Part shown: positions 4,683 through 58,953 of the stretch, piece after piece | Numbering within the stretch: position 1 is the stretch's first letter | Layout of the letters: each line of letters opens with the position of its first letter | Source of the DNA: Candidatus Latescibacterota bacterium | Lineage (GTDB): Bacteria; Latescibacterota; UBA2968 | Assembly: GCA_965207885.1 (NCBI GenBank) | Contig: OZ242311.1 | Coordinates: forward strand, 576,001-640,000 | DNA: 64,000 nucleotides | Direction of reading: 5' to 3' | Notes under the pieces: model-generated | What the model saw: only the letters and a program-made list of their open reading frames with translations | Told to the model about the DNA's origin: nothing | Database searches by the model: none | Program-made: the position numbers and the translations under genes

Positions 4683-5531
4683 GTGACGTCTAAAACTGTT
4701 CACGGTATTGAAAAAAAGGAGCGAGTACTTATGGCCACCAAAAATATGGTAGTGCTTTTCGATGAATCCGGAACACCAACTATCAAAGACGATCCAAGGA
4801 CAGATTGGTTTCTTGGCGTTGGCATAGCTTACGAGCAATCTGCCGAGAAGATGATCTTTTCCAGATGCAAAGATGCTTGCGGTCTAGCGAATAGCAGACC
4901 GTTGAAAAACGACCGCATTGGAAACGTTCGTGCAGTATGTATTGCAAAGCTCTTGGCAGACTTACCTGTGTCCATATTTATTTCTCGTGTGAATACAGCA
5001 GATCCAGAATATCGTGAAACCATAGTTGACTATGAGGACTTTGGTAACAAAGCCAGGCAGGAATTTCGACAAGTCCGAGGACGCCCGATAGCCCAAATTA
5101 TTCATTCTCAGGTACTTGATTATTGTTTATTCTATTTGATCACGGGCTATTTTGAGCAAGGTGGAGGCGATTCTGCCTTTGCCATATTCATCGATAATTG
5201 GTCTATTTCTCCAAACGATATTGATATTTTCCTTAGCTTTAGGGCCGAATCCTTATATGAAAGGATATCGTCTTTACATCGTCGTTTTCCTGCTGAAGGG
5301 CAACTCGTTTCAATAAAACCGCTGGAGTTGCTTAAGGAAGATAGCAGCAGAAAGAGATTCGTTGATGTGGTGGCCAGTATCTTCAGTAGGGCATACCTAA
5401 AAAGGGACAATCAGAGGTATTCATATGAAGCTGCAAATATCCTTCAAGAATGTGGAAAGGCATCGTGTAGTGATGCGACGCAATATTTGATTAATCTCGT
5501 GCAAGCAGTAATGAAAGAAAGTCAAAATTGA
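4683..5531 (+). CDS. DUF3800-like (RNase H-fold) protein
   Basis: N-terminal FDESG motif, central IFIDN and late DVVAS. The true start may be at 4731. Confidence 0.65.
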   Translation: MTSKTVHGIEKKERVLMATKNMVVLFDESGTPTIKDDPRTDWFLGVGIAYEQSAEKMIFSRCKDACGLANSRPLKNDRIGNVRAVCIAKLLADLPVSIFISRVNTADPEYRETIVDYEDFGNKARQEFRQVRGRPIAQIIHSQVLDYCLFYLITGYFEQGGGDSAFAIFIDNWSISPNDIDIFLSFRAESLYERISSLHRRFPAEGQLVSIKPLELLKEDSSRKRFVDVVASIFSRAYLKRDNQRYSYEAANILQECGKASCSDATQYLINLVQAVMKESQN

Positions 5532-5907
5532 GCGTGTTGAAGGTAGGGGGACCTGCGCTCAGGTCTTGGGGTGTCTCAAAGCCCAGACCGATTGGCTCAC
5601 GGGTGGAGGCAAGGCTATCACAGCGTGTGTGGGATGGGTTTTGGATGGGTGGCTTGAGCGGTGGGTATCCTGTAAATCCTCACATCCTACCTATCCTGAT
5701 GAACTGGTCTGGAAATCGACCAGTTGTACACCGCTTCTGACAAGGGGGATTGGCTGGCTTGCGAATAGCACCCAACGCGAGATATTTTGAAATGCGATTG
5801 ACAATATCGCGTTGTTGATACATTTTTTATCGGACAGTATGGATATAGTGGGAGACAGCGCAATACGATTTTGGTAGAAACTCGCTGATGCTATACAATG
5901 GGGCTAC

Positions 5908-6384
5908 ATGAGATTACAGCGTGTATATGTTGATACTTCTGTCATCGGCGGCTGCCATGATGATGAGTTTGCCACCTGGTCAAACGGCTTGATGAAAGAT
6001 TTCCGTTTGGGTAACTTCCGGCCGGTCGTATCCGAAGTCGTTGACGCGGAGGTTCGGGATGCCCCTGAGCCTATTCGAGATATTTATTCAGAACTTTTGA
6101 CTCTGGAGCCTGAATTTCTCAACGCTACAGAGGAAGCCGTGCAACTTGCTGAAATCTACCTGGAAAGACAGATTCTGACAGACAGATTCTTCGATGATGC
6201 CCTGCATATCGCTTTGGCTTCGGTTGCAGAAGTCGATGTGTTGGTTAGCTGGAACTTCAGACACATCGTACACTTCGACAAGATACGTCTGTTCACCGCT
6301 GTGAATATTGAGCGTGGCTATAAACCATTACAGATATACTCTCCGCGTGAGGTGACCAATTATGGAGACGAAAAAGACGTTTGA
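5908..6384 (+). CDS. PIN-domain toxin
   Basis: VYVDTSV...DALHIALA...LVSWNFRHIV. Confidence 0.9.
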   Translation: MRLQRVYVDTSVIGGCHDDEFATWSNGLMKDFRLGNFRPVVSEVVDAEVRDAPEPIRDIYSELLTLEPEFLNATEEAVQLAEIYLERQILTDRFFDDALHIALASVAEVDVLVSWNFRHIVHFDKIRLFTAVNIERGYKPLQIYSPREVTNYGDEKDV

Positions 6385-6538
6385 TGCGGTTAAAATTGTG
6401 CGCCGGATTCGAGACGCGCACTATGAGCAACTCAAAGATAGAACGGTAAAAGAGCAATTGGCATTTTACCAAGGCAAGTCTCATGCATTGCGTAACGAAT
6501 TAAAAAAGAAATTGCAAGAGCATTATGATGACGAATGA
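6362..6538 (+). CDS. Small putative antitoxin (58 aa, not in the ORF track)
   Basis: METKKTFDAVKIVRRIRD...; overlaps the 3' end of the PIN gene, as is typical of this pair. Confidence 0.65.
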   Translation: METKKTFDAVKIVRRIRDAHYEQLKDRTVKEQLAFYQGKSHALRNELKKKLQEHYDDE

Positions 6539-6713
6539 CCCCATTGTTTCGGAAGTCCGAGCAGTACGCGATAAACACGCTGCTCAGTTTGGCTACAATC
6601 TCAAAGAGATATTCCGCGATATTAAGAAAAAACAAAAAGCATCTGGTCGTCAATATGTGCAGTATCCATCCCGTGCGGCTGTTGCAACAGCTATTACAAC
6701 TTCAGACCAGTAG
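6525..6713 (+). CDS. Small putative antitoxin-like protein
   Basis: DPIVSEVRAVRDKHAAQFGYNL pattern, common next to PIN genes. Confidence 0.6.
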   Translation: MMTNDPIVSEVRAVRDKHAAQFGYNLKEIFRDIKKKQKASGRQYVQYPSRAAVATAITTSDQ

Positions 6714-6729
6714 CGATAAAGGCAATATC

Positions 6730-7320
6730 ATGACGACGGTTTTCATTGGCGGTTCTCGTAGCCTCACACGCTTGAACGATACCATCAGGTACACAGCGGA
6801 TAACATCATGCGTCAGCATTTTGATATCGTTATCGGAGATGCAAATGGTGCTGATAAGGCTGTACAGAGCTATTTAGCAGAAAAAGCATATCGGAATGTT
6901 ATCGTCTATTGTATGGATGATCACTGTCGGAACAACGTGGGAAGTTGGCCAGTAGAACAGATATATGCAGATAATCAGGTAAAGGACTTTGCATACTACA
7001 CAACTAAGGATACAGAGATGGCTCAAGTAGCGTCCTATGGCTTCATGATTTGGGATGGAAAGAGTAAGGGAACTTTGAACAATATTCTCAACTTATTGCA
7101 GCTACAGAAGAATATCCTGGTCTATTTTTCGCCCGATAAGTCCTGTTATAAGCTCAAATCACACGATGATCTTAATACACTCTTAAAAAAGTGCAGCATC
7201 GATATGAGAGAAATGTTCAAACTTCGGAACTTGCGAACCAGGAAGCATGTGATTAAAGGCGACCCCGAGGATCTGGTTCATATCACCTGGGATAAGGCGG
7301 TGAATATTGATCTACCTTGA
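6730..7320 (+). CDS. SLOG-superfamily-like protein
   Basis: VFIGGSR...IGDANGAD...WDGKSKGT motifs. Confidence 0.65.
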   Translation: MTTVFIGGSRSLTRLNDTIRYTADNIMRQHFDIVIGDANGADKAVQSYLAEKAYRNVIVYCMDDHCRNNVGSWPVEQIYADNQVKDFAYYTTKDTEMAQVASYGFMIWDGKSKGTLNNILNLLQLQKNILVYFSPDKSCYKLKSHDDLNTLLKKCSIDMREMFKLRNLRTRKHVIKGDPEDLVHITWDKAVNIDLP

Positions 7321-7485
7321 TGTTTTGAAATGCGGTTGACAAAAGCGTATGTGTTAAACATTGACATGTACGCTTTTTTGTTTTCTTTGACTTCACAGCC
7401 TTAACCGAAATCCGATTGACAATGTCGCATTGTTGCTACATTGTTTATTTCTGAGGATATTCCCAATACCAGAAAAGGAAAATAC

Positions 7486-8694
7486 ATGAAAATCAAATCC
7501 GTCGAAGTCGTTCGCGTGGAACGGCCAGATGCAAGCCAGGTCTCAACGGGTTCTGGTACGACGCTCGCTGCTTCAACAAGTGCAGCCCCGAGGACAAAGG
7601 GGTATAGAAAGGCGTGGCCCTCGCAGATAGAGGTGGCAAATCCGATGTCTAAGTTCCCGCGGTTTAAGGCGCGGCGTCAGCTTTACGGTGCCAGACAGTG
7701 GCCCAGGTTTTCGGTTAAGGTGACCGCTGAAGACGGGACCTGGGGCCTCGGCACGTCGGCGGGACGCCCAGTTGCTATGGTGGTGGAAGATGCTTTCGCG
7801 CATATACTGGAAGGGGAAAGTTGTCTGGCAATTGAAAAGCTGTGGGATATGATGTTTCGCGTGTCCAAATCTTTTGGGACTGTGGGGATTGCCTCGTTGG
7901 CGATTAGTGCTGTGGATCTGGCGCTGTGGGATCTGGCGGGGAAATTGCAGGGCAAGCCCGTTTATGAACTTCTGGGTGGTCCGGCGCGCGATCGTTTGTT
8001 TGTGTACGCGACGGGTGATGATGTGGATTGGTACAAGGAGTTGGGGTTTCGGGCGTTTAAGTTGCCCTGTCAATATGGGCCGGTTGATGGGTTGTGGGGA
8101 TTGGGGGAGAACGAGAGGCGAATAGCCGAGGTCCGCGAGTTGATCGGCGATGATTGCGATCTCATGCTGGATTGTTATATGGCTTTGGATGTGGAATATA
8201 CCGCGCGTTTGGCCAATCGCCTGCGTCCTTATAATCTGCGCTGGATGGAAGAGTGCCTGATTCCCGAGGATGTTGGGGGGCATATTGAACTCAAGAAACG
8301 CCTGCCGTGGTTGACGCTTGCCAGTGGCGAGCATTTTTACACGCCGTATCCCTACCAGTTGATGATCGAAAATCGGTGTCTCGATATTCTCCAGCCCGAT
8401 ATTCAGTGGGTGGGCGGTTTGACTGCTTGTGTCAAAATTTGTAATATGGCTGCTGCTGCGGGTCTGGAAGTTTGTCTGCACGGCGGGGGACGCGATGCGT
8501 ACGGTCAGCATTTGAGCTGGGCAATGCCCAATACGCCCTGGTGTGAGTATTTTATCGGTTCTGATCCGGGGGTACCACTTGAAGAAGTGGCGCAACCCGG
8601 CGCGCGCGTGCCGCGCAATAGCTATCTGGAGTTTGCGCCGACGGGTCCGGGTTTTGATCTGGGGATTGAAGAGGATTGGTTGGTGCCGTTTTAG
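7486..8694 (+). CDS. Enolase-superfamily sugar-acid dehydratase (L-rhamnonate dehydratase-like)
   Basis: SAVDLALWDL.GK; metal ligands in LDCYM, WMEE and SGEH; LQPD. Confidence 0.85.
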   Translation: MKIKSVEVVRVERPDASQVSTGSGTTLAASTSAAPRTKGYRKAWPSQIEVANPMSKFPRFKARRQLYGARQWPRFSVKVTAEDGTWGLGTSAGRPVAMVVEDAFAHILEGESCLAIEKLWDMMFRVSKSFGTVGIASLAISAVDLALWDLAGKLQGKPVYELLGGPARDRLFVYATGDDVDWYKELGFRAFKLPCQYGPVDGLWGLGENERRIAEVRELIGDDCDLMLDCYMALDVEYTARLANRLRPYNLRWMEECLIPEDVGGHIELKKRLPWLTLASGEHFYTPYPYQLMIENRCLDILQPDIQWVGGLTACVKICNMAAAAGLEVCLHGGGRDAYGQHLSWAMPNTPWCEYFIGSDPGVPLEEVAQPGARVPRNSYLEFAPTGPGFDLGIEEDWLVPF

Positions 8695-27735: not shown

Positions 27736-30700
27736 ATTTCTACTGGAATCATTTTGCGCGTTTTCGGCTGATATGTCATGCCTGTAAGTAATTTTTCGAG
27801 TGTGTTGGTGATGCGGAAGACAACGCGATTTTTGCCTTGTTTGAGATGGGCTGTTTTTCCAGTCCAGCAATAGGGTGCCCAGGCGCGTACGCCCAAAGAC
27901 TGGCCGTTGATTGTTATTTCGACGATGTCGCCGAGGTTTTTCACGGTGCGTTCGAGGTCTATTTTGAAACGCGGGGTTTGGGGCAGGGTTTTGAAGTCGA
28001 TGTCCCGGGTGTATGACACGGTGCCAGCATAGAAGGGCAGTCCCTGTGCTTTGAGGTCAAAAATTGGACCGCTATCTTGAAGGGGTGATAGTTTGGGATA
28101 TACGTTGCGCCAGGATTTGACCTGAAAACGTCCAAAGAGATACAGGGCATCGACGAGGCCATCACCCGGGCTGTTGACTTCCACACGGATGGCGATCACA
28201 TTTTTGCCCTTGTTTATGCGTTGTCCCACGGAACACGTCGCGTTGGCGTGATCGAATCGGAAGGTGGGGCGAAAAGCATTGCTCGGCAATTTGGAACCGT
28301 TGATGTAGATCTGGTGCTCTCCCTGAATGGCACTTCGATCCATGACCAGAGAGAGTTTACTGGGGACAATGTCTGCGATAAAGGTTTTTCGGTACCAACA
28401 AATCGTTTTTTCTTCTGGGTCGTCAAAAGGTTGTGGGCGCGTTTCGGACCATCTGCTATCGCTATAAGTCGGCTGATGCCAGCCCTGGCGTTTGCCCGTG
28501 TTAGACGGGTCGAATTTCGTTTTGAATTTGTCCAGGCGCAAGGCATTATCTTCTTCTGGATCAACTTTCCAGTGACCTGTTAAATTGAGTTTGAGAGTTT
28601 CTACCAGAGGCTCTTCTTTTTCTTTTTTCGGGTGGCCCGGAGAGGTTACGATCATATGTGATTGCAGCCGATCAAAGGAGAGGTTAATGCGACTCATTTC
28701 TCCGGCAGGTTCGACCACAAGAGGTGTGCGTTTGCCCGTTTCTAAATCCCATTTCTCTATATGTCCGTCGGAGGCGGGTATAAAAATTTGTGTTGTAACG
28801 GGCGAATTTTCCCGATTGGAAAAAAAGAATATGCGATGCTTTTCATCTGTTCGGTGGTGATATTGTATTGTGTCGGCGCTTTTCCCGTCTGACATGATGT
28901 GTACTCGCCGAGGCAGTATTTCGTCGAGCAGGCGTTCCAGCATGGATGTCGCCTGATTTTTTTCTACAGTACCCCCCGTGCGGATAAACATGAAGTTGTC
29001 TCGACTCAGCAAGTGGACGCCCGATTCGTGGCCGGTATAATCGCGAATCATTCGCCCGGGGTCCATGTCGGTCAACCGCGAAAATCCCTCGACGACCGAT
29101 GTGCCCTCTTGAATATCCTCGATGGGCAATAATCCCAGGGCGATGACGAGACCGCCTGCATTGATAAATGCGCGTAGCTTATCAAAAGCTGCGCGTTCCA
29201 GATTGGTGATGGGAGGAATGATCAGGACCGTGTAGCGCGTTTTGCCGATCTGCAATTGGCGGTTGGTGATTTCCGCCTGAGCGAGGAGGGCCGGGTCAAG
29301 ACTTTGAAATGGCCGCTGCATCTGATACAGAGCGCGGGCAATACAGGCCCAGTCGGCAACGAGGTTATTGGTCAGTGTTTCTTCATCGGGATCATAGCCG
29401 ACATAAGACCAGTTGTGAAACGGGTGTGCGAGGTGTGCCCACAGGCTGGTGACGGGCTCGAGGAGTGCAATATCGGCGACTTGCTGACCCTGGATTAAGA
29501 GATGGGCAAGTCGCCCCGCGTAGTCAGACAGCAGATGGAAGTGTTTCCAGTAGGGATTTTGATGAAATAGAGATGTGGCGTGTTTGCGCAATCCGTCGAG
29601 TGTGTAGTAGAGGGCGTGGGGCGCAAAGAAGTTGGTTCCGTGGGTGCCGAGGGTATCGAGCTGTGCTTTCATATCTTGCAGCGTGGTTGCCCAGCCCGTG
29701 TTTTGAAAACAGGTATTGAGTACGCGTGAAGTGCTTGTCTGTGCGGCGAGCGACGTTGCAAATTCAGGGCTGTGGCGATATGATACGACGTATTCTCTGG
29801 TGCGTTCAACACTACCGCCTGTACCAGGTATGGGTATGGAAGTGCGATGGGCATTGCGAAGCGGGGTTATATCGCTCGCATAATTGAGGTCGTGTTCTTT
29901 GCACCAGTCGGCACTGCGCGCGCTGTCGTGCCGCTGTTGCAGTTCGCTCAGGGTTTGAAAATAATCGTAGCGGATGCGGCTCGTGTTGGGTCCAAAGTAG
30001 GTTATGAGGGCAGGCAAGCAAGGGAGTATATTGTAGCCATTGCGCGTTTGGAAGTAGTCGGGCAATACAGGTGACCAGGGCAGGCGATCTTTGGGAAAAT
30101 GCGTTTCCGAAGTTAAGATGCCCTTTAAGGTTTTGCCCTGAAAGGCGGAAAATTGTTCGATGTAGGGTTGTTGAATGGTCTGGTGCAGGGTGCGAACAGA
30201 CTCTGGATTGAACCGATCGAGGTGTGAGCCAGGACAATCGCTGGTTGCCGTGGGTTCTTGCAAAAAAACGAGCACGCGCCAACGTCCGGCAGGTGCTTTC
30301 CAGTACAGTCGGCGGGTGGGATTAAAAGATACATAATTGTAGGGATGGTGGGCGGACACAGCGCTGTTGTTGCGCAATGCGTGGTGTTGGTGATTGACCC
30401 CCAGATAAGCACTGATATCTTGTTTGTCTTCCCACAGACAGCGGTCTCTTCGCAAGGGCACAGCGAATGCTTGCAACACGGGTGCCCAGGGCAGCATAAG
30501 GTCAACTTGTTGTCCGCCCTGTACAACGGTTTCGCGAAAGGTGAGTTGTTGTGCGATGAATTGAGGATGGTTTAAGGTGATTTGGGTCGATCCAATACCA
30601 CCTGGATAGCGGTATTCGTCGTGGATCCAGACCTGGAGGCCATTTTCTTCTGCTGTTTCGAGTGCCAATTTTACGCGCTCGAACCAGATGTGCGACAAAT

Positions 30701-53249: not shown

Positions 53250-54341
53250 TTAATCACCCTGTAATGTACTCTGTTGGGCATCGTACATGGCACGCGTAAG
53301 TTTGTTCAACTTCTCTTTGTGAGTCTCCCAATCAGCCGCGGTCAACTGGAATCCAATCTCCAGGTAGTTTTCCAGCGCAGCGTCGAGGTCTTTCAGCGCA
53401 TCATCCTCACGGTTTGGCGGATATGTTTTGAATGGAATCTCTTTTATGAGCAGCTTAAATTCATCCAGGCACAACTTGATAGCATTCCGAAAGAAAACGA
53501 CCACTACCATCTTTTCTCGCGGGTCAATGCGAGCGTAAGTGTTTCTGACACGTCTTCCTGTGTTACTCCGCTTTTGGAGACGAAAGTTGAGACCATGCCT
53601 ATTACTGCTTTCGAGAGAGCTGGGCCAATTTTCACGGAACTTTTTTGCTACAGTGTCGAACAAGTCAGATATGCCGTGTTTCTTGTTGCGGCTATCCAAC
53701 AACTCCCTGAATTCTTCCTGGCTCCGTCTTGTCCGCCTGACCTGCCGGGAATCGTCGTCATCGCCTTCAACGTGCATCTGCCGCGCGAGGAGTACCTTCC
53801 CTTCTTGTTCAAAGCCGTAAAAGGTCAACAGGGATATGTCCATGCCGTTTTTGGCGAGATAGTTCACCATTCGCTCGGTCGTGTCATCAACGCCCAATCC
53901 GACCAAGAACATACGCAGTGGTCTCAGAGAGTCCAGATTGTCCACATCTAAATTTTCGTTTTCGATGTACCATCTTTCAAAGTCGTTGATCTTATCAATC
54001 CCATGTGCGCCTGACTTATTGGAGATGTGATTAACCAGGGCATCCAGATCCATATCTTCAAGATAGGATACGTAGTCTATAATCTGTGCTATAGCATCTC
54101 GAGATAAGGTGCCGCGTTTTAACTCGAATACAACCAGACTGCCATCGCTATCGACGCCGAGTAGATCCAGTGGGCCTCCTTCTGTCTGTGTTTGTCGTCC
54201 TACGAGCGTTAATCCTGGCATCAGTAGTTCGGGATTTTTGACCAATATTTCCTCCAGAAGCCTCTCAGAATCCATTCGGTTTGTCTGTTGTACCGGTGAT
54301 ACTTGAGAGCTTTCAATTGTCCATATCTTGATTTCGTCCAT
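53250..54341 (-). CDS. NucS-like PD-(D/E)XK nuclease with an unknown C-terminal domain
   Basis: ERLLE, LDLLGVD...FELKRG...AQIIDY. Confidence 0.75.
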   Translation of the reverse strand: MDEIKIWTIESSQVSPVQQTNRMDSERLLEEILVKNPELLMPGLTLVGRQTQTEGGPLDLLGVDSDGSLVVFELKRGTLSRDAIAQIIDYVSYLEDMDLDALVNHISNKSGAHGIDKINDFERWYIENENLDVDNLDSLRPLRMFLVGLGVDDTTERMVNYLAKNGMDISLLTFYGFEQEGKVLLARQMHVEGDDDDSRQVRRTRRSQEEFRELLDSRNKKHGISDLFDTVAKKFRENWPSSLESSNRHGLNFRLQKRSNTGRRVRNTYARIDPREKMVVVVFFRNAIKLCLDEFKLLIKEIPFKTYPPNREDDALKDLDAALENYLEIGFQLTAADWETHKEKLNKLTRAMYDAQQSTLQGD

Positions 54342-54770
54342 TTATCTTCCCTTTTTTAGAAGCGGTGAGAAATAAAAAATCACTTGACCAATGATTACGT
54401 CCCTTGTTGTGTATAAAAACTGTAAATATCTACAAAGATCAGAAAATTGGAAAAATCTACTGTTCCGTCATTAAGGGGGTTATACCCTTAATAGGAAATA
54501 CGCCCTTAGCTGCTTTTTTAAGATGAAGGAAGGACCCGCCCGACATAAAAAGAGACTTTATAGTATAGCGGTCGTATTTTGTGCGTTTTATCTTGGCTCT
54601 CCTTTTGGTCTGAACAACTCCATTTTAATGGCTTCCGGTAGTGTCTCAGTTTGAAAATTTGCGGTTTTCTGTTGACAGGGGTACGGTGCGTACTTTATTA
54701 TTCAACTTAACCCGCAGATTTCGTTCGTTCACAAGAGAAATACATTCAGGATTCAGGAGGGCAACCGACT

Positions 54771-54986
54771 ATGCCAAAGGGACCAAACGGAGAAAAGCGC
54801 CCTGGCGATGTCGTATCTTGTGCTGTAACAGTAGCACGTATTGCAACCGGTGAAATAGAAGATACGAAATACAAACAGCCAGGCAAACGAAAAGGAGGGG
54901 TCGCAGGTGGGCGTGCCCGTGCAAAAGCACTCTCGCCAAAGCGACGCAAAGAAATAGCGAAAAAAGCTGCCGCCGCAAGGTGGTAG
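54771..54986 (+). CDS. Small basic putative nucleic-acid-binding protein
   Basis: GGxAGGRARAKALSPKRRKEIAKKAAAARW; TTGACA promoter, AGGAGG RBS and a terminator at 55004-55034. Confidence 0.8.
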   Translation: MPKGPNGEKRPGDVVSCAVTVARIATGEIEDTKYKQPGKRKGGVAGGRARAKALSPKRRKEIAKKAAAARW

Positions 54987-55091
54987 CTATCAGAGCAAGG
55001 AATAAGCCGAGGTCTATACGATCTCGGCTTTTTTGTTTTCAAAAACCACTCTATCCTTGACAATGGCTTTTTGCAGTGGTACATTTCTTAT

Positions 55092-55250
55092 GCTTCAGAT
55101 TAGTCACACTCAGTAGAGGCCCCGCTTGGTCGGGTAGCCTGCTGAATAGAATAGCCAAATTGTGGAGCGGATTAGCTACCCGTCCCCGGTGAATAGGTAG
55201 GGCCCTCCTCGCATCTCTCTGCGTGAGTGTGACTACTACCCGGCATCCTT
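55092..55250 (+). ncRNA. Predicted structured small RNA 1
   Basis: TTGACA-17-TACATT promoter; stems 55101-55112/55224-55235 (12 bp) and 55131-55138/55175-55182 (8 bp). Confidence 0.55.
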
Positions 55251-55280
55251 GCGCAATCTTTTCCACACACATTCATACAC

Positions 55281-55385
55281 AAAAAAGAGCCGGAAGACTC
55301 TGGCGGAGCCTCCCGGCAAAGGCAGACACGCGAACCACCCGTTGAAAGTTTATCGCTGCATCCACCTGATTCGTAAATGAGTGGA
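55281..55385 (-). ncRNA. Predicted small RNA 2
   Basis: TTGACA (55418-55413)-17-TACTTT; 12-bp terminator whose G.U pairs form only on the minus strand, followed by a U tract. Confidence 0.5.
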
Positions 55386-55465
55386 TTTCAAAGTAAGTAA
55401 AAACCTGCTTTGTGTCAATTCTGTTACAGGTGGATGTGGCGACTCACCACACAGAGGAGGTTTAA

Positions 55466-56098
55466 ATGTATAGGTTCATTCTTGCTGTTTTGTCGGTACT
55501 TGTGTACTCTGCTGGCTCGCCAATGCTCGCTACTGAGCGGCCTTATTTACGGACTGATAGCGGCCAAGCCCGTCAGTTGCGCTATTCGGAGATCTATGCA
55601 ACGGCCTGGTACGGAACAGAGGGCACCATTAACCTTCATATAATAATGTCATGGACTCCTAGCAATTCCATGACCTTCGTGAAATGGTTAGTAGTCAACG
55701 ATACGGCTCGGGATCTGTATTCTGTGACCATTGGAGACAGGGAGTACGAGTGTTCTAATGGAAATGTGATAACCGTCAAGGGGAATTGGTGGACTGATCC
55801 CTTGGAGGGCAGAAGGGTAGATGACACCGTGGTCATTGGAGGCAGGGAGTACGAATTGCCGCGGGGGTGGATGCGGCGTGTTGGTGGGACCAACCCCGAC
55901 ATCATACTCCACAAGAAGTCTCCGCGCGGCCAGAAGGAGTGTCCGCGCATCACAAGCATCCGCCTGAAGGGAGACCCTAAATCTCTTGTTAAATACCTCA
56001 TCAACAAAGGTGACAAAGATGTGCATGGCTGGGGAGAGGGCGGGCGAGTTGAGGTTTACCGGAAGGTATCCCGTCGCTGGAAATTGGAGATTAAATAG
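55466..56098 (+). CDS. Secreted hypothetical protein (transposon cargo)
   Basis: GAGGAGG RBS, signal peptide, two Cys. Confidence 0.75.
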   Translation: MYRFILAVLSVLVYSAGSPMLATERPYLRTDSGQARQLRYSEIYATAWYGTEGTINLHIIMSWTPSNSMTFVKWLVVNDTARDLYSVTIGDREYECSNGNVITVKGNWWTDPLEGRRVDDTVVIGGREYELPRGWMRRVGGTNPDIILHKKSPRGQKECPRITSIRLKGDPKSLVKYLINKGDKDVHGWGEGGRVEVYRKVSRRWKLEIK

Positions 56099-56116
56099 GC
56101 CACATAGCTTTAGTCG

Positions 56117-56302
56117 CTATCGCGGGATCTGATAATCCTCAATGACCGTGATTTCCTCCAAGGTGACGCCTGGTGCTGGTCTGATGGTTTTTACCAATAT
56201 CTGACGCTTCTTCTGCTGTTCGGCCCGATTCTGCCTTTCAGGGCAGATTCTGGTGCATAGCACATAATAGCCAAGATACGGGCATTGCTGACACTTTACC
56301 AT
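56117..56302 (-). CDS. Small Cys-rich protein (61 aa, transposon cargo)
   Basis: GAGGAG RBS; CQQC...CTRIC; own TTGACA-17-TAATAT promoter at 56490-56462. Confidence 0.5.
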   Translation of the reverse strand: MVKCQQCPYLGYYVLCTRICPERQNRAEQQKKRQILVKTIRPAPGVTLEEITVIEDYQIPR

Positions 56303-56363
56303 GACAGAGGTCTCCTCTAACTAAAGACTTGACCTCAGTACACAAATTTAGTATAATCTAAGT

Positions 56364-56412
56364 GTCTGGTGCCAAGGCATTCTTTTGGGGCGTGCTCATA
56401 ACACGCCCTTTT
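56364..56412 (+). ncRNA. Predicted ~50-nt small RNA 3, antisense to the leader of the 61-aa gene
   Basis: TTGACC-17-TATAAT (56329-56357), then a GGGCGTG/CACGCCC hairpin and TTTT. Confidence 0.45.
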
Positions 56413-56553
56413 CCTTGCCCACCTCATTTTCGGCAGGCTCGTTGCGCTCTGCAACTATTCAATATTAACCGTTTTTCCCCACCCTGTCAACCATTCCCAC
56501 TTAGTTTGACATAAATGCTTGACAAACAGCACCTTAATCGCTAAATTTAAGGT

Positions 56554-57393
56554 ATGAATAAGTTAAGCAAAAACAAGCGGATACAGATACTTGCGATGTT
56601 GTGTGAGGGCATGTCGATGCGGTCGGTAAGCCGTGTTGTCGGGTGTTCTATCAACTCCGTATTGAAGTTGTTGGTAGATGCAGGACAGGTGTGTGCGTTT
56701 TACCATGATGAGCATGTGCGCGGTATAGAAGCAGCCCATATCCAGTGTGATGAGATATGGGCTTTTTGTTATTGTAAGCAGAAAACGGTAGAAAACGGGA
56801 ATGTGGATCAATACGGTGCGGGTGATGTGTGGACGTGGACGGCATTAGAGCGAGACACAAAGTTGATCATTGCCTATGAGGTCGGAGATCGGTCTGCTGT
56901 GACCGCAATGGAGTTTATATCGAATCTCCGTGCGAGATTGGTGACCCGGGTACAATTGACGACGGATGGCCTGAGGGCGTATCTCGAAGCGGTCGAGGGC
57001 GCGTTTGGTGATGATATAGACTTTGCCCAATTGGTGAAGATTTACGATACTGAGACGAACCAGTTGAAACGTGTGGTGATTGGAAACCCTGTTGAGAGCG
57101 ATATTTCAACATCCCACGTTGAGCGTCAGAATCTCAATATGCGAATGGGGATGCGCCGGTTTACGCGACTGACGAATGCGTTTTCAAAGAAGTTGGAAAA
57201 CCACATTCACATGCTGAGTCTCTACTTTCTGTATTACAATTTCGTGCGGATGCATTTGACGTTGGAGACAACGCCAGCAGTCGCGGCAGGGTTGGCAGAC
57301 GAAGCCTACACAATGGGCTGGATCGTTGACCTGGTGGATGCTCACGCACCCAAACCCAATCGACCAAAAACGTACCGCAAAATTTCAAACTGA
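56554..57393 (+). CDS. IS1-family DDE transposase
   Basis: HTH; CDEIW, TTDG and HVERQN..MR...RRFTR. Stop lies inside the right IR. Probably leaderless (TTGACA-17-TAAATT-6-ATG). Confidence 0.92.
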   Translation: MNKLSKNKRIQILAMLCEGMSMRSVSRVVGCSINSVLKLLVDAGQVCAFYHDEHVRGIEAAHIQCDEIWAFCYCKQKTVENGNVDQYGAGDVWTWTALERDTKLIIAYEVGDRSAVTAMEFISNLRARLVTRVQLTTDGLRAYLEAVEGAFGDDIDFAQLVKIYDTETNQLKRVVIGNPVESDISTSHVERQNLNMRMGMRRFTRLTNAFSKKLENHIHMLSLYFLYYNFVRMHLTLETTPAVAAGLADEAYTMGWIVDLVDAHAPKPNRPKTYRKISN

Positions 57394-57636
57394 GACACTA
57401 CCTGGCTTCCCCAAAAGTAGGCTGTTTCATTACTCTTGTAATTTTGTCCCGTATGCGAAAACTCAGGACATAAGGAGGGAACAGGAAATGTGTGTAATAG
57501 AATTCATACGTGGCGCAGAACTTCTCTCCCAACTGCATAACTTCGGCCCCGAGGTAGTTCGCTAATCCGTATTCCTTCGCTCTAACGGCGGCATTGTATC
57601 GCTTGCATACTTCGAGGATTTTTTTCTTTGGATTTT

Positions 57637-57905
57637 TCATTGGCTTGCTCTTGCGTCTTTCAACTGCTCGGCGATTGTTCTGCGGCGGGAGATAATCTCT
57701 TTTGCGTTGGCTCGATCAATTTTCTTTCGCGCTTGGTTGCGGACGTATCTGAGAATTTCGTTGGGGTCTTGGTTCAGATAGTTCCCGACTACGCGGCAGA
57801 ACTCTGTGAGGTTGCGATTCCGCGGGAGGAATTGCATTTGTGACAGGCAGTCACTAAGTTAGATTCGTCATTGCTCCCGCCTTTGCTGTATGATCTAACG
57901 TGATC
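57637..57905 (-). pseudogene. 5'-truncated, frameshifted HNH endonuclease remnant
   Basis: DHVRSYSKGGSNDESNLVTACHKCNSSRG, then a one-base shift into NRNLTEFC... Confidence 0.75.
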
Positions 57906-57974
57906 AAAAGAGACGCATTGCAAGGAATGCGTCTCAAAGATAAATAAGAGGTATGACAGGGTATGTCGTGGGTG
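57906..57974 (-). promoter_or_regulatory. WYL-box promoter/terminator module, copy B
   Basis: Directly after the WYL stop codon; 66/69 identical to copy A. Confidence 0.75.
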
Positions 57975-57975
57975 G

Positions 57976-58953
57976 TCAGGTTTTTTTATAAGAATCTAGA
58001 TTTTTTTTGAGTTCCTCAATTATTTCTTCGCGTAGGGCGGGTGGTTCGAGGACTTCTGCATCTGCGCCATGGCTGAGTATCCAAGATTTTATTTCGTAAA
58101 AACCGCCGGCTTGAAAGGAGAGTATTATCTCGCCAGTGTCCAGTTCTTCAATTTTTTCTGAGGGGTGCCAGATCCGCTGTTTGATGTATCGAGCTTGCCA
58201 GGCGGAGAATCGGATTTTGACGTCTATTGGGTCTTCGAGTGTGATGCCGAATGCCTGCTGGATGCGGTTTTCGATGTCCAGATCATCGGGTGGCTCAAAG
58301 GTTTGGGATGTGATTTCGAGGTCTTGAATGCGTTCTGCTGCGAGTGTGAGTAAGTCGGCGTAATTTGGATTGCGGCAGAGTAGATAATATCCGTTGTGAT
58401 AATACAATAATCTAAAGGGTGTAATGGGATAGGTTTTGGTTTGTCCGGTTGTGATGGCGTGATAGGTGATGTTGCAAATTTTACGTTCTTTGATTGCGCG
58501 ATGAGCGGTTTCGAGTACTTCAGGAGATATCAGCGCTTTTTGCCCGCGATGATGGGGGTAATAAGCTGCGCCCGCCTTTTCTAAAAATGCTTGCATCGGC
58601 TCTGGGAGCGTTGTTCTGATTCTGTTCAGGGTTTTCTGAAATGCTTCTTTGTATGGCGTGCCTTCAAGCGGGCTGACGATTCCTTCGATGAAGGTCAGTG
58701 CGATGATTTCGTCGGTGGGAAAGTTCAGGGGTGGCAGGTTGTTTTTTTCGAGTTTAAAGTATTTTTTTCCGCGGTCTCCCACTTCTTCATTGATACTGAA
58801 GCCCACTTCTCGGAGATCATCGAGATCCCTTTGTATGGTGCGCTTGTCAACGCCCGATTCGTCGGCGAGTTTTCGATAAGGCACACCATAAGTCTGGGCG
58901 AGGAGTGTGCGGAGGATGTCCAGTTGACGGACGATTTGTTTGTTGTCTGACAT
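57976..58953 (-). CDS. wHTH-WYL-WCX transcriptional regulator (YafY/PafBC-like)
   Basis: KRTIQRDLDDLR HTH; P.RL.Y...YYL; ERI; WILSHG..AEVLEP..LR. Confidence 0.92.
   Translation of the reverse strand: MSDNKQIVRQLDILRTLLAQTYGVPYRKLADESGVDKRTIQRDLDDLREVGFSINEEVGDRGKKYFKLEKNNLPPLNFPTDEIIALTFIEGIVSPLEGTPYKEAFQKTLNRIRTTLPEPMQAFLEKAGAAYYPHHRGQKALISPEVLETAHRAIKERKICNITYHAITTGQTKTYPITPFRLLYYHNGYYLLCRNPNYADLLTLAAERIQDLEITSQTFEPPDDLDIENRIQQAFGITLEDPIDVKIRFSAWQARYIKQRIWHPSEKIEELDTGEIILSFQAGGFYEIKSWILSHGADAEVLEPPALREEIIEELKKNLDSYKKT

Follow-up and report, generated by a model that had tools for sequence, protein, structure and literature searches.

An active IS1-family transposon with passenger genes and a putative relative of the sRNA-Xcc1 RNA in a genome of the Latescibacterota

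The 64,000-nt stretch of DNA analysed here (the window; positions 576,001 to 640,000 of contig OZ242311.1, GenBank assembly GCA_965207885.1, from a Candidatus Latescibacterota bacterium) contains at positions 54637-57402 an active IS1-family transposon of about 2.8 kb that carries passenger genes. The element combines two known kinds of genetic unit, a transporter insertion sequence (IS) of the IS1 family and an RNA of the sRNA-Xcc1 class. Its transposase gene and a gene for a 71-aa basic protein are the fixed core of an IS1-type lineage with an exchangeable cargo slot between the two, and in this element the slot holds the structured RNA together with genes for a 210-aa protein and a 61-aa Cys-rich protein (Table 1). 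In the reading that we regard as the probable one, the RNA would be a cis-acting leader that gates expression of the cargo and would play no part in transposition.

The terminal arms of the element (left and right inverted repeats, IRL and IRR) are 29 nt long and complementary at 28 of 29 positions (97%), exactly so over the outermost 20 nt, and they are enclosed by an 8-bp target-site duplication (TSD), TGGCTTCC. An original prediction, made by a model from the letters of the window without database searches, had described an element with exact 20-bp inverted repeats and an 8-bp TSD; both are borne out, with the repeats extending to 29 nt. The whole 2766-bp element is present in four copies of 100% identity in the single-contig, 6.2-Mb source genome, and three of the four have perfect 8-bp TSDs that differ from each other (TGGCTTCC, TATTTTTG and GATCCGTG). 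Four identical full-length copies, three of them with differing TSDs, indicate recent movement as one unit, inner genes included. The remaining copy, at C1:304525-307290, has no TSD (TTCTCCCC versus GGATTTCC), which fits a later rearrangement or recombination between copies. The host gene that had been described as interrupted holds up weakly: reconstruction of the empty site shows that a hypothetical 92-aa minus-strand open reading frame (ORF) is indeed clipped by the insertion, but loses merely its last ~13 codons.

The transposase is encoded by a single ORF of 279 codons that matches Pfam DDE_Tnp_IS1 (PF03400) with 37.2 bits, passing the cut-off of 24.1. Its best NCBIfam match is transpos_IS1 (NF033558) at 74.6 bits, below the equivalog cut-off of 100, and the IS1595 model scores 23.4 bits. 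Residues D66, D138 and E190 are invariant in an alignment of the transposase with 23 relatives (24 sequences). Members of the IS1 family have terminal inverted repeats and duplicate 8-9 bp of target; the element has the DDE domain, 29-nt repeats and perfect 8-bp TSDs at three of its four copies. Classical IS1 expresses InsA-InsB' by a programmed −1 frameshift, a layout that is absent here, the transposase being one ORF. Because single-ORF subgroups of IS1 exist according to ISfinder, the missing frameshift does not exclude the element from the family, and by these sequence features it is best placed in a divergent subgroup of IS1. The prediction of an IS1-family element carrying passenger DNA is borne out by the DDE domain, the inverted repeats, the TSDs and the cargo.

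The element shares with IS1 the DDE_Tnp_IS1 domain and its invariant D/D/E, inverted repeats starting with GGT, an 8-bp TSD, and a small basic gene at the left end with a promoter beside IRL, as in the case of insA. It differs from IS1 in the absence of a programmed frameshift, in a transposase with its own, probably leaderless, promoter, in a small protein that is unrelated to InsA by the searches run, and in a slot of 0.7-2.6 kb before the transposase. IS1595 elements have a transposase of a related superfamily, but the IS1595 model matches only at the low score given above and the N-terminal zinc ribbon of IS1595 is absent from this transposase. The transposase start has no Shine-Dalgarno sequence, and the −10 element of the promoter ends 6 nt before the ATG. 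In the lineage the transposase ATG is preceded at 5-8 nt by the end of a TATAAT-like −10, again with no Shine-Dalgarno sequence, and the −35 lies within a short palindrome, GCTTGA..TCAAGC. Of 73 related loci with a tblastn match that begins at a start codon, most show this layout by eye and only 14 fit a strict pattern. The transposase mRNA is probably leaderless, as judged from this spacing, and the palindrome may be an operator.

A scan of species-representative genomes with the transposase returned 123 relatives, from which 80 loci (45-67% identity) were retained, originating from Alphaproteobacteria, Nitrospirota, NC10, Acidobacteriota, Binatia, Chloroflexota, Latescibacterota and others. 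Upstream of the transposase and in its orientation, 46 of these 80 loci encode a homologue of the basic protein that is full-length by the criterion of at least 55 aligned residues, always next to the left repeat. The related elements have a GGTAGTG repeat end 64-330 nt 5' of the basic-protein gene and a CACTACC end just 3' of the transposase. In 61 related genomes, a profile of the basic protein found six full-length matches, four in the source genome and two in genome G060, plus three fragments, and all six full-length matches lie beside an IS1-type transposase gene. On comparative grounds the basic protein is a conserved core component of the IS lineage and not cargo. The original prediction had taken it for cargo and for a partner of the RNA, a claim contradicted by its presence as a core gene in 46 of 80 elements when the RNA is found in or beside merely three further ones. 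The same prediction had proposed to test which cargo is conserved in related elements; the conserved genes there are those of the transposase and the basic protein, with slot contents that vary.

The basic-protein family is large (3,314 clusters at E ≤ 0.001, ~72 aa), has two conserved blocks and is modelled as three helices (predicted local distance difference test score, pLDDT, 78). No Pfam or NCBIfam family matches it, and the PHROG search gave only a weak match of the C-terminal motif. Its relatives bear source names such as "histone H1", "RNA-binding protein" or hypothetical protein, and the Atlas automatic name is "RNA-binding protein". At least in this clade, the ~72-aa "histone H1 / RNA-binding protein" family is a transposon gene, which corrects that annotation. 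By analogy with InsA of IS1, we infer that the basic protein may work as a regulator of transposition or of transposase transcription.

The slot between the basic-protein gene and the transposase measures 743-2649 nt in the 46 elements and holds unrelated cargo. Variable cargo between two core genes makes the lineage a transporter IS. Among 77 slot ORFs of at least 95 aa from the 46 elements, nine encode Peptidase_M78 proteins (ImmA/IrrE type, mostly with HTH_3) and seven HTH_3 alone, followed by P63C (four), SocA_Panacea (three) and Fic (three); RhuM, HigB-like, NYN, SecB-like, SDH protease, DUF3467, aspartyl protease and a DDE_Tnp_1 fragment occur once each, and 43 of the 77 match no family. 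The family assignments suggest that the slot of this lineage is largely filled with toxin-antitoxin (TA) or defence-like genes. Insertion sequences with passenger genes ("transporter IS", tIS) are mentioned in a passage of PMC7986276, and part of PMC3129680, in which Siguier et al. 2009 is cited, treats both the kinship of IS1 and IS1595 and the tIS concept. Literature searches, whose reach did not extend to ISfinder entries, found no paper on the architecture of basic protein plus slot.

The RNA at 55101-55248 is the best supported of the non-protein cargo. Five diverged paralogs were found in the source genome by nhmmer, all outside the element, and with a covariance model built from the six copies the family was recovered from 39 of 61 related genomes (1-9 copies per genome), among them 18 of 20 further genomes of the genus and all 15 genomes of a second genus. 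In 35 aligned RNAs, 92.7% of cells pair, versus 34-46% with slid partners. Compensatory changes on both sides occur in 26 of 42 pairs, and none of 500 shuffles reaches the observed values. The 5' and 3' arms form a helix of 16 pairs that the search model did not include, and 12 of its pairs show compensatory changes. An invariant helix, GUCGGG/CCCGRC, crosses this arm helix, and the fold must therefore be a pseudoknot or consist of two alternative states. A −35/−10 pair lies directly 5' of the 5' arm in every RNA subgroup. Together these comparisons indicate a genuine conserved, covarying structured RNA of ~150 nt with its own sigma-70 promoter. Two minus-strand ORFs (54746-55084 and 55051-55272) were considered as coding sequences and dropped, as conservation tracks base pairs and not codons; an identity of the RNA arms as attC sites was also dropped, the RYYYAAC/GTTRRRY cores of attC being absent by eye. 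One RNA paralog, on the minus strand at C1:2467650-2467920, is flanked by a ~17-nt direct repeat, TTTTCACACGATTCACA, with a Fic/DOC-like gene nearby.

The RNA is a member of a large class, as yet uncurated, of extended relatives of sRNA-Xcc1 on mobile DNA. Eight of 20 RNA-family loci match the Rfam model of sRNA-Xcc1 (RF02221) colinearly over model positions 1-87 with 20.9-28.3 bits; the gathering score is 53 bits, a threshold that no family member reaches, and the core architecture and motifs are shared. When the whole source genome is compared with RF02221, the two best matches are two of the RNA paralogs (E 0.02 and 0.36). In alignments, the element's own copy carries the core motifs of the family. 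A regular expression for the canonical Xcc1 core gave five matches in 87 loci and the window; four are RNAs already known from the covariance model, the element copy included, and the other, at 28773-28889 of the window, is apparently due to chance. The family has in common with sRNA-Xcc1 a closing helix GUCGGG.../...CCCGRC, the loops AAUACAAUA and GGnGAAUA, a CACCC-U tail, a location on mobile DNA upstream of unrelated genes, and a multi-copy state in some genomes. It differs from sRNA-Xcc1 in a length of ~150 nt instead of 88, in a ~30-nt hairpin inserted in the first loop, and in an extra 5' arm that pairs with a segment forming a local hairpin in the Rfam model.

RNA cargo of this kind had been called not known for IS1 in the original prediction. 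This is partly true, except that the RNA is a relative of sRNA-Xcc1, which the title of Chen et al. 2011 reportedly terms trans-acting and "transposon- and plasmid-transferred". According to a portion of PMC2996969, sRNA-Xcc1 gives a single ~100-nt Northern band with mapped ends that define an RNA of 88 nt. In excerpts of other reports it precedes symE in the integron cassette that is most widespread in Xanthomonas (bioRxiv 10.1101/2025.06.18.660453), precedes an ORF6N gene in APSE phages (bioRxiv 10.1101/2020.03.17.996009), and occurs seven times in Xylella (PMC12189769).

Directly 3' of the RNA, in the six source-genome versions and at every other inspected locus, is a co-oriented ORF, sometimes at a distance of only 26-70 nt. 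The downstream genes mostly encode membrane or exported proteins, including an Imm_superinfect membrane protein, a zinc-ribbon membrane protein with a secreted protein, a WD40 protein with a signal peptide, an Rce1-like (CPBP) protease, a secreted SNase and a tRNA_anti-like protein. Only three further IS1-like elements have the RNA in or beside them (87 loci scanned): those of a Dehalococcoidia metagenome-assembled genome (MAG; locus L142), where the RNA lies between the basic-protein gene and the transposase, of a Latescibacterota MAG (L099), and of genome G057 (L092). In all three, the RNA is on the strand opposite to the transposase and is followed by a gene for a small exported or membrane protein.

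The source genome contains exactly three IS1595-type DDE genes, and all three lie 0.2-1.7 kb from an RNA paralog, beside the same type of cassette of RNA and cargo. Across the 61 genomes, at least 23 of 104 RNA matches have one of the 150 listed IS1595 DDE matches no more than 3.6 kb away, and five more of the 104 sit in IS1-type elements; the other 76 have no IS1 or IS1595 transposase nearby among the matches listed. With a handful of such genes per genome of 5-6 Mb, chance would give about one such case, by a rough estimate that is no formal test and that treats related genomes as if they were independent. In G016, G058 and G060, the plain IS1595 elements present in high copy number are mostly without the RNA. 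The counts argue for a non-random association of the RNA with IS1 and IS1595 transposases.

The scan found neither a promoter-like site nor a plus-strand terminator between 55250 and 55466, so that the 210-aa gene probably lacks a promoter of its own and is read from the promoter of the RNA, with the RNA as its 5' leader. Promoter, RNA and 210-aa gene make up a self-contained cassette within the slot. Read-through from that promoter into the 210-aa gene would allow the RNA to set or gate cargo expression in cis. Within the family there is a possible means of doing so. In most members the CCCGRCACC strand can pair with either the upstream GUCGGG or a downstream GGUGYCG, and a repeat of the 5' arm often follows the downstream partner segment; alternative pairing of the 3' strand of the closing helix would make a two-state switch in most of the family. 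For five of 13 distinct 3' arms, the strongest pairing is with the 90 nt downstream of that same arm, and the mean rank of the cognate pairing is 4.3 of 13. Conserved loops and mutually exclusive pairings, as a riboswitch would have, are seen in most copies but not in the element copy, and the downstream genes share no metabolic theme. The alternative 3' hairpin is lost from the element copy by truncation, and in that copy gating might be constitutive or might have been taken over by the leader hairpin and a predicted antisense RNA (described below).

Several observations weigh against this account of a core-and-slot transposon with a cis-acting leader. For the leader, they begin with that missing 3' hairpin and the rank of the element's 3' arm, 5 of 13. 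Complementarity between the RNA and the leader does not exceed chance, the longest stretch being 10 nt with six G-U pairs, a value matched by 188 of 300 shuffles. The RNA and the 210-aa gene are separated by 217 nt, and a terminator 50-140 nt 3' of several family members fits a free-standing small RNA (sRNA). For the relationship to sRNA-Xcc1, the element's RNA copy gives no RF02221 match at E ≤ 1 or E ≤ 10, and an Rfam scan of 54000-58000 at E ≤ 1 found only a chance snoRNA match inside the transposase gene; homology to sRNA-Xcc1 therefore rests on the paralogs and the shared motifs. For the link to IS1595, the ends of IS1595 elements next to the RNA paralogs were not found as inverted repeats, and with those ends undefined the link is one of adjacency only. 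For the core, 34 of the 80 loci have no full-length co-oriented basic-protein match; 21 of them lack any match (about eight of these being cut by a contig end), and in the remainder the C-terminal motif is matched only in part or in reverse orientation. The basic protein has neither a sequence relative in PDB nor a Foldseek match, and no relative of known function. Finally, the passage of PMC2996969 cited above describes sRNA-Xcc1 as a discrete 88-nt RNA on Northern blots.

A free-standing, trans-acting sRNA that pairs with host mRNAs elsewhere, its position before the 210-aa gene reflecting only how the cassette is packaged, remains a serious rival, if a rather unlikely one. Trans action is what the title of Chen et al. 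2011 reportedly claims for sRNA-Xcc1, and terminator-like U-runs after many family members, the 217-nt gap and the want of specific leader complementarity point in the same direction, as do the ~100-nt Northern band and the 88-nt mapped ends in the cited portion of PMC2996969. However, the nucleotides of the family that are most conserved between genera and phyla are unpaired internal-loop motifs and the invariant closing helix, which is unusual for seed pairing, and the co-oriented ORF directly 3' of the RNA at every inspected locus, with a 210-aa gene that lacks a promoter-like site of its own, also counts against this rival.

An addiction module, in which the 61-aa or the 210-aa protein would be toxic and would be restrained by predicted antisense RNAs so as to stabilise the transposon, is an unlikely explanation. 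The idea draws on the TA or abortive-infection-type cargo of related slots, on the predicted antisense RNAs that both protein genes face, and on symE, a homologue of type I toxins, which sRNA-Xcc1 accompanies in cassettes of Xanthomonas (as stated in part of bioRxiv 10.1101/2025.06.18.660453). Against it, both proteins lack matches to known families of toxins and antitoxins; the cargo consists of an exported protein of 210 aa, which is atypical for a type I toxin, and a Cys-rich protein of 61 aa that is not hydrophobic. The predicted antisense RNAs have no comparative support, and the RNA family precedes non-toxin genes such as those for the WD40 protein and the CPBP protease. The suggestion in the original prediction of an addiction or regulatory module is reasonable for the slot of the lineage, where related cargo is largely TA- or defence-like.

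Quite improbable, in our estimate, is a mechanism resembling that of c4 RNA in phage P1 immunity, with the RNA cut from the leader, pairing with downstream repeats and blocking translation of the first gene. The P1/P7 c4 (immI) RNA and riboswitch-type leaders do share with the family a promoter-proximal structured RNA before genes and a strand with two alternative partners, and many family members have the downstream repeat of the 5' arm and the second partner for CCCGRCACC that such a mechanism would use. However, there is no sequence or Rfam relationship to c4, and no target pairing for the element copy, whose complementarity does not exceed chance. In a crude duplex test, the cognate RNA was ranked first against its own translation-initiation region in only two of 13 cases (two regions overlapped the RNA), and the candidate antisense segments are buried in helices when the RNA is folded.

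A system of RNA-guided or RNA-assisted transposition or targeting, composed of the RNA and the basic protein and also put forward in the original prediction, is highly improbable: the RNA does lie non-randomly beside IS1 and IS1595, and relatives of the basic protein bear the (automatic) name "RNA-binding protein", but four identical elements with identical RNAs sit at unrelated sites, three of them at unrelated 8-bp targets with unrelated flanks, the RNA varies independently of the core (basic protein in 46 of 80 elements, RNA in or beside three further ones among 87 loci), it occurs on either strand and on either side of the basic-protein gene, and most RNAs lie outside this transposon. Both the unrelated targets of these identical elements and the independent variation of RNA and core contradict RNA-guided targeting.

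Returning to the preferred reading of a core-and-slot transposon with a cis-acting leader, two features stand out: the architecture of basic protein plus slot, which a widespread subgroup of IS1 shares, and the non-random association of the RNA class with IS1/IS1595. The IS1-type lineage is one of small gene shuttles and not of plain insertion sequences, with a fixed core of repeats, basic protein and transposase and an exchangeable slot for TA, defence or secreted-protein genes, found in Alphaproteobacteria, Nitrospirota, NC10, Acidobacteriota, Chloroflexota and others. A class of structured RNAs that databases see only as the 87-nt sRNA-Xcc1 core is tied to IS1 and IS1595 and, in this reading, to the control of exported cargo. 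Tentatively, and as a possibility that we hold with some doubt, the Xcc1-like RNA could be a signal-sensing gate, riboswitch-like or protein-binding, in mobile cassettes of promoter, RNA and exported- or membrane-protein gene that IS1 and IS1595 elements prefer across phyla, with the basic protein as a new kind of IS regulator that marks a large, slot-bearing IS1 subgroup. If true, this would amount to a widespread, undescribed class of RNA-controlled transposon cargo, and the basic protein would identify a large IS1 subgroup with a cargo slot for defence and addiction genes. With four identical copies, one promoter, one RNA and one reporter-ready gene, the element offers a testable system for the role of the RNA.

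Table 1. Features of the transposon and its insertion site, in positions of the window
Feature	Position	Strand	Basis
TSD, left copy, TGGCTTCC	54629..54636	.	same 8 bp at 57403-57410
IRL	54637..54665	+	29 nt, 97% complementary to 57374-57402
Promoter-like site TTGACA-18-TATTAT, inside IRL, 5' of 71-aa gene	54672..54701	+	11/12 consensus matches
71-aa basic protein, conserved core (accessory) gene, predicted three-helix	54771..54986	+	ORF, homologues, model
Intrinsic-terminator-like hairpin 3' of 71-aa gene	55004..55030	+	11 pairs, T-run
RNA promoter TTGACA-17-TACATT, TG-extended −10	55057..55085	+	promoter scan; equivalents in family
Structured RNA, extended, putative distant relative of sRNA-Xcc1 (RF02221)	55101..55248	+	covariance-model match, 134.5 bits
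Candidate antisense small RNA	55283..55417	-	by-eye weak promoter 55417-55389; terminator 55317-55289; prediction only
Long hairpin, 210-aa gene leader	55353..55442	+	z −4.2; 0/200 shuffles equally stable
210-aa protein, N-terminal hydrophobic helix, passenger	55466..56098	+	ORF, relatives, AlphaFold2 (AF2) model
61-aa Cys-rich protein, passenger	56117..56302	-	ORF; four Cys within residues 1-20
Candidate short RNA	56329..56409	+	promoter TTGACC-17-TATAAT 56329-56357; terminator-like hairpin 56387-56409; prediction only
Promoter-like site TTGACA-17-TAATAT facing 61-aa gene	56462..56490	-	promoter scan
Transposase promoter	56519..56547	+	−10 ends 6 nt 5' of ATG; layout shared by related elements
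IS1-type DDE transposase, 279 aa, single ORF	56554..57393	+	Pfam, NCBIfam, invariant D/D/E
IRR	57374..57402	-	inverted-repeat comparison; end ...CTGAGACACTACC recurs in elements of another genus
TSD, right copy	57403..57410	.	sequence

The ORFs of 71, 210 and 61 aa and the 279-aa transposase gene are all four present where the original prediction had placed them. The 210-aa protein is probably exported, as suggested by a model in which residues 2-16 form a hydrophobic helix (AF2, pLDDT 36). It forms a narrow family of eight relatives with 61-89% identity, matches no Pfam, NCBIfam or PHROG family and nothing in the Atlas, and was not found in 131 other genomes of its class or in JGI metagenomes. 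The 61-aa protein has two database relatives, and comparison with its paralog (L020:6680-6859) reveals in-frame indels of 9 and 6 nt; on account of these indels and the two relatives, the gene is taken to be coding.

A promoter scan of 54300-57800 found eight promoter-like sites, versus 3.8 ± 2.2 in shuffles. The six near-consensus sigma-70 promoters of the original prediction are sustained as to five strong, distinct sites within the element (plus strand at 54672, 55057, 56329 and 56519, minus strand at 56490), but the sixth, TTGACA-17-TACTTT on the minus strand from 55417, is weaker and was read by eye only. As had been claimed, three of the six (55057, 56329 and minus-strand 55417) lead to no ORF. 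Similarly, of the three small RNAs proposed, the one at 55101-55248 is conserved and covarying, but the other two are predictions of promoter, terminator and fold seen in identical copies only. The predicted antisense RNA of ~100 nt has a fold z score of −3.0 and a strong terminator (12 pairs, 8 GC, T-run). The predicted short RNA (56364-56415; z −2.2) would be antisense to the presumed 5' untranslated region of the 61-aa gene. Neither of the two predicted antisense RNAs has a conserved counterpart in the paralogous module at C1:667-669 kb. The leader hairpin of the 210-aa gene ends ~5 nt 5' of a Shine-Dalgarno-like stretch, GAGGAGG, that was read by eye.

That paralogous module (C1:667263-669553; positions 5264-7971 of locus L020) lies outside the IS1 element. 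It consists of an Xcc1-like RNA, genes for a 92-aa zinc-ribbon membrane protein and a 226-aa secreted protein, and a gene for a Cys-rich protein of 59 aa that is paralogous to the 61-aa protein; an IS1595-type transposase gene comes next, and an IS5-type element lies just upstream. Approximately 56 nt of the Cys-rich gene are ~95% identical in DNA between this module and the element copy. At C1:2241286-2242538, an IS3-family element (39-nt imperfect inverted repeats, OrfA/OrfB) is inserted between an IS1595-type transposase gene and an Xcc1-like RNA. At 13 loci of the second genus, the RNA has HlyD-like and peptidyl-prolyl isomerase genes on one side and a gene for a CPBP (Rce1-like) intramembrane protease on the other; a U-run terminator is located ~70 nt 3' of the RNA, and the setting resembles a bacteriocin export/immunity locus. 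In G060 (C1:4470000-4486000), an IS1-like element with a basic-protein gene is found between two oppositely oriented Xcc1-like RNAs, 3.4 and 1.7 kb off, and an IS1595-type gene lies 3.3 kb further on, an accumulation that resembles an accessory island. In the window itself, the genes flanking the transposon are, from the ORF list only, a minus-strand gene at 57976-58953 encoding a 325-aa protein that is like a helix-turn-helix regulator, and a minus-strand gene at 53250-54341 encoding 363 aa.

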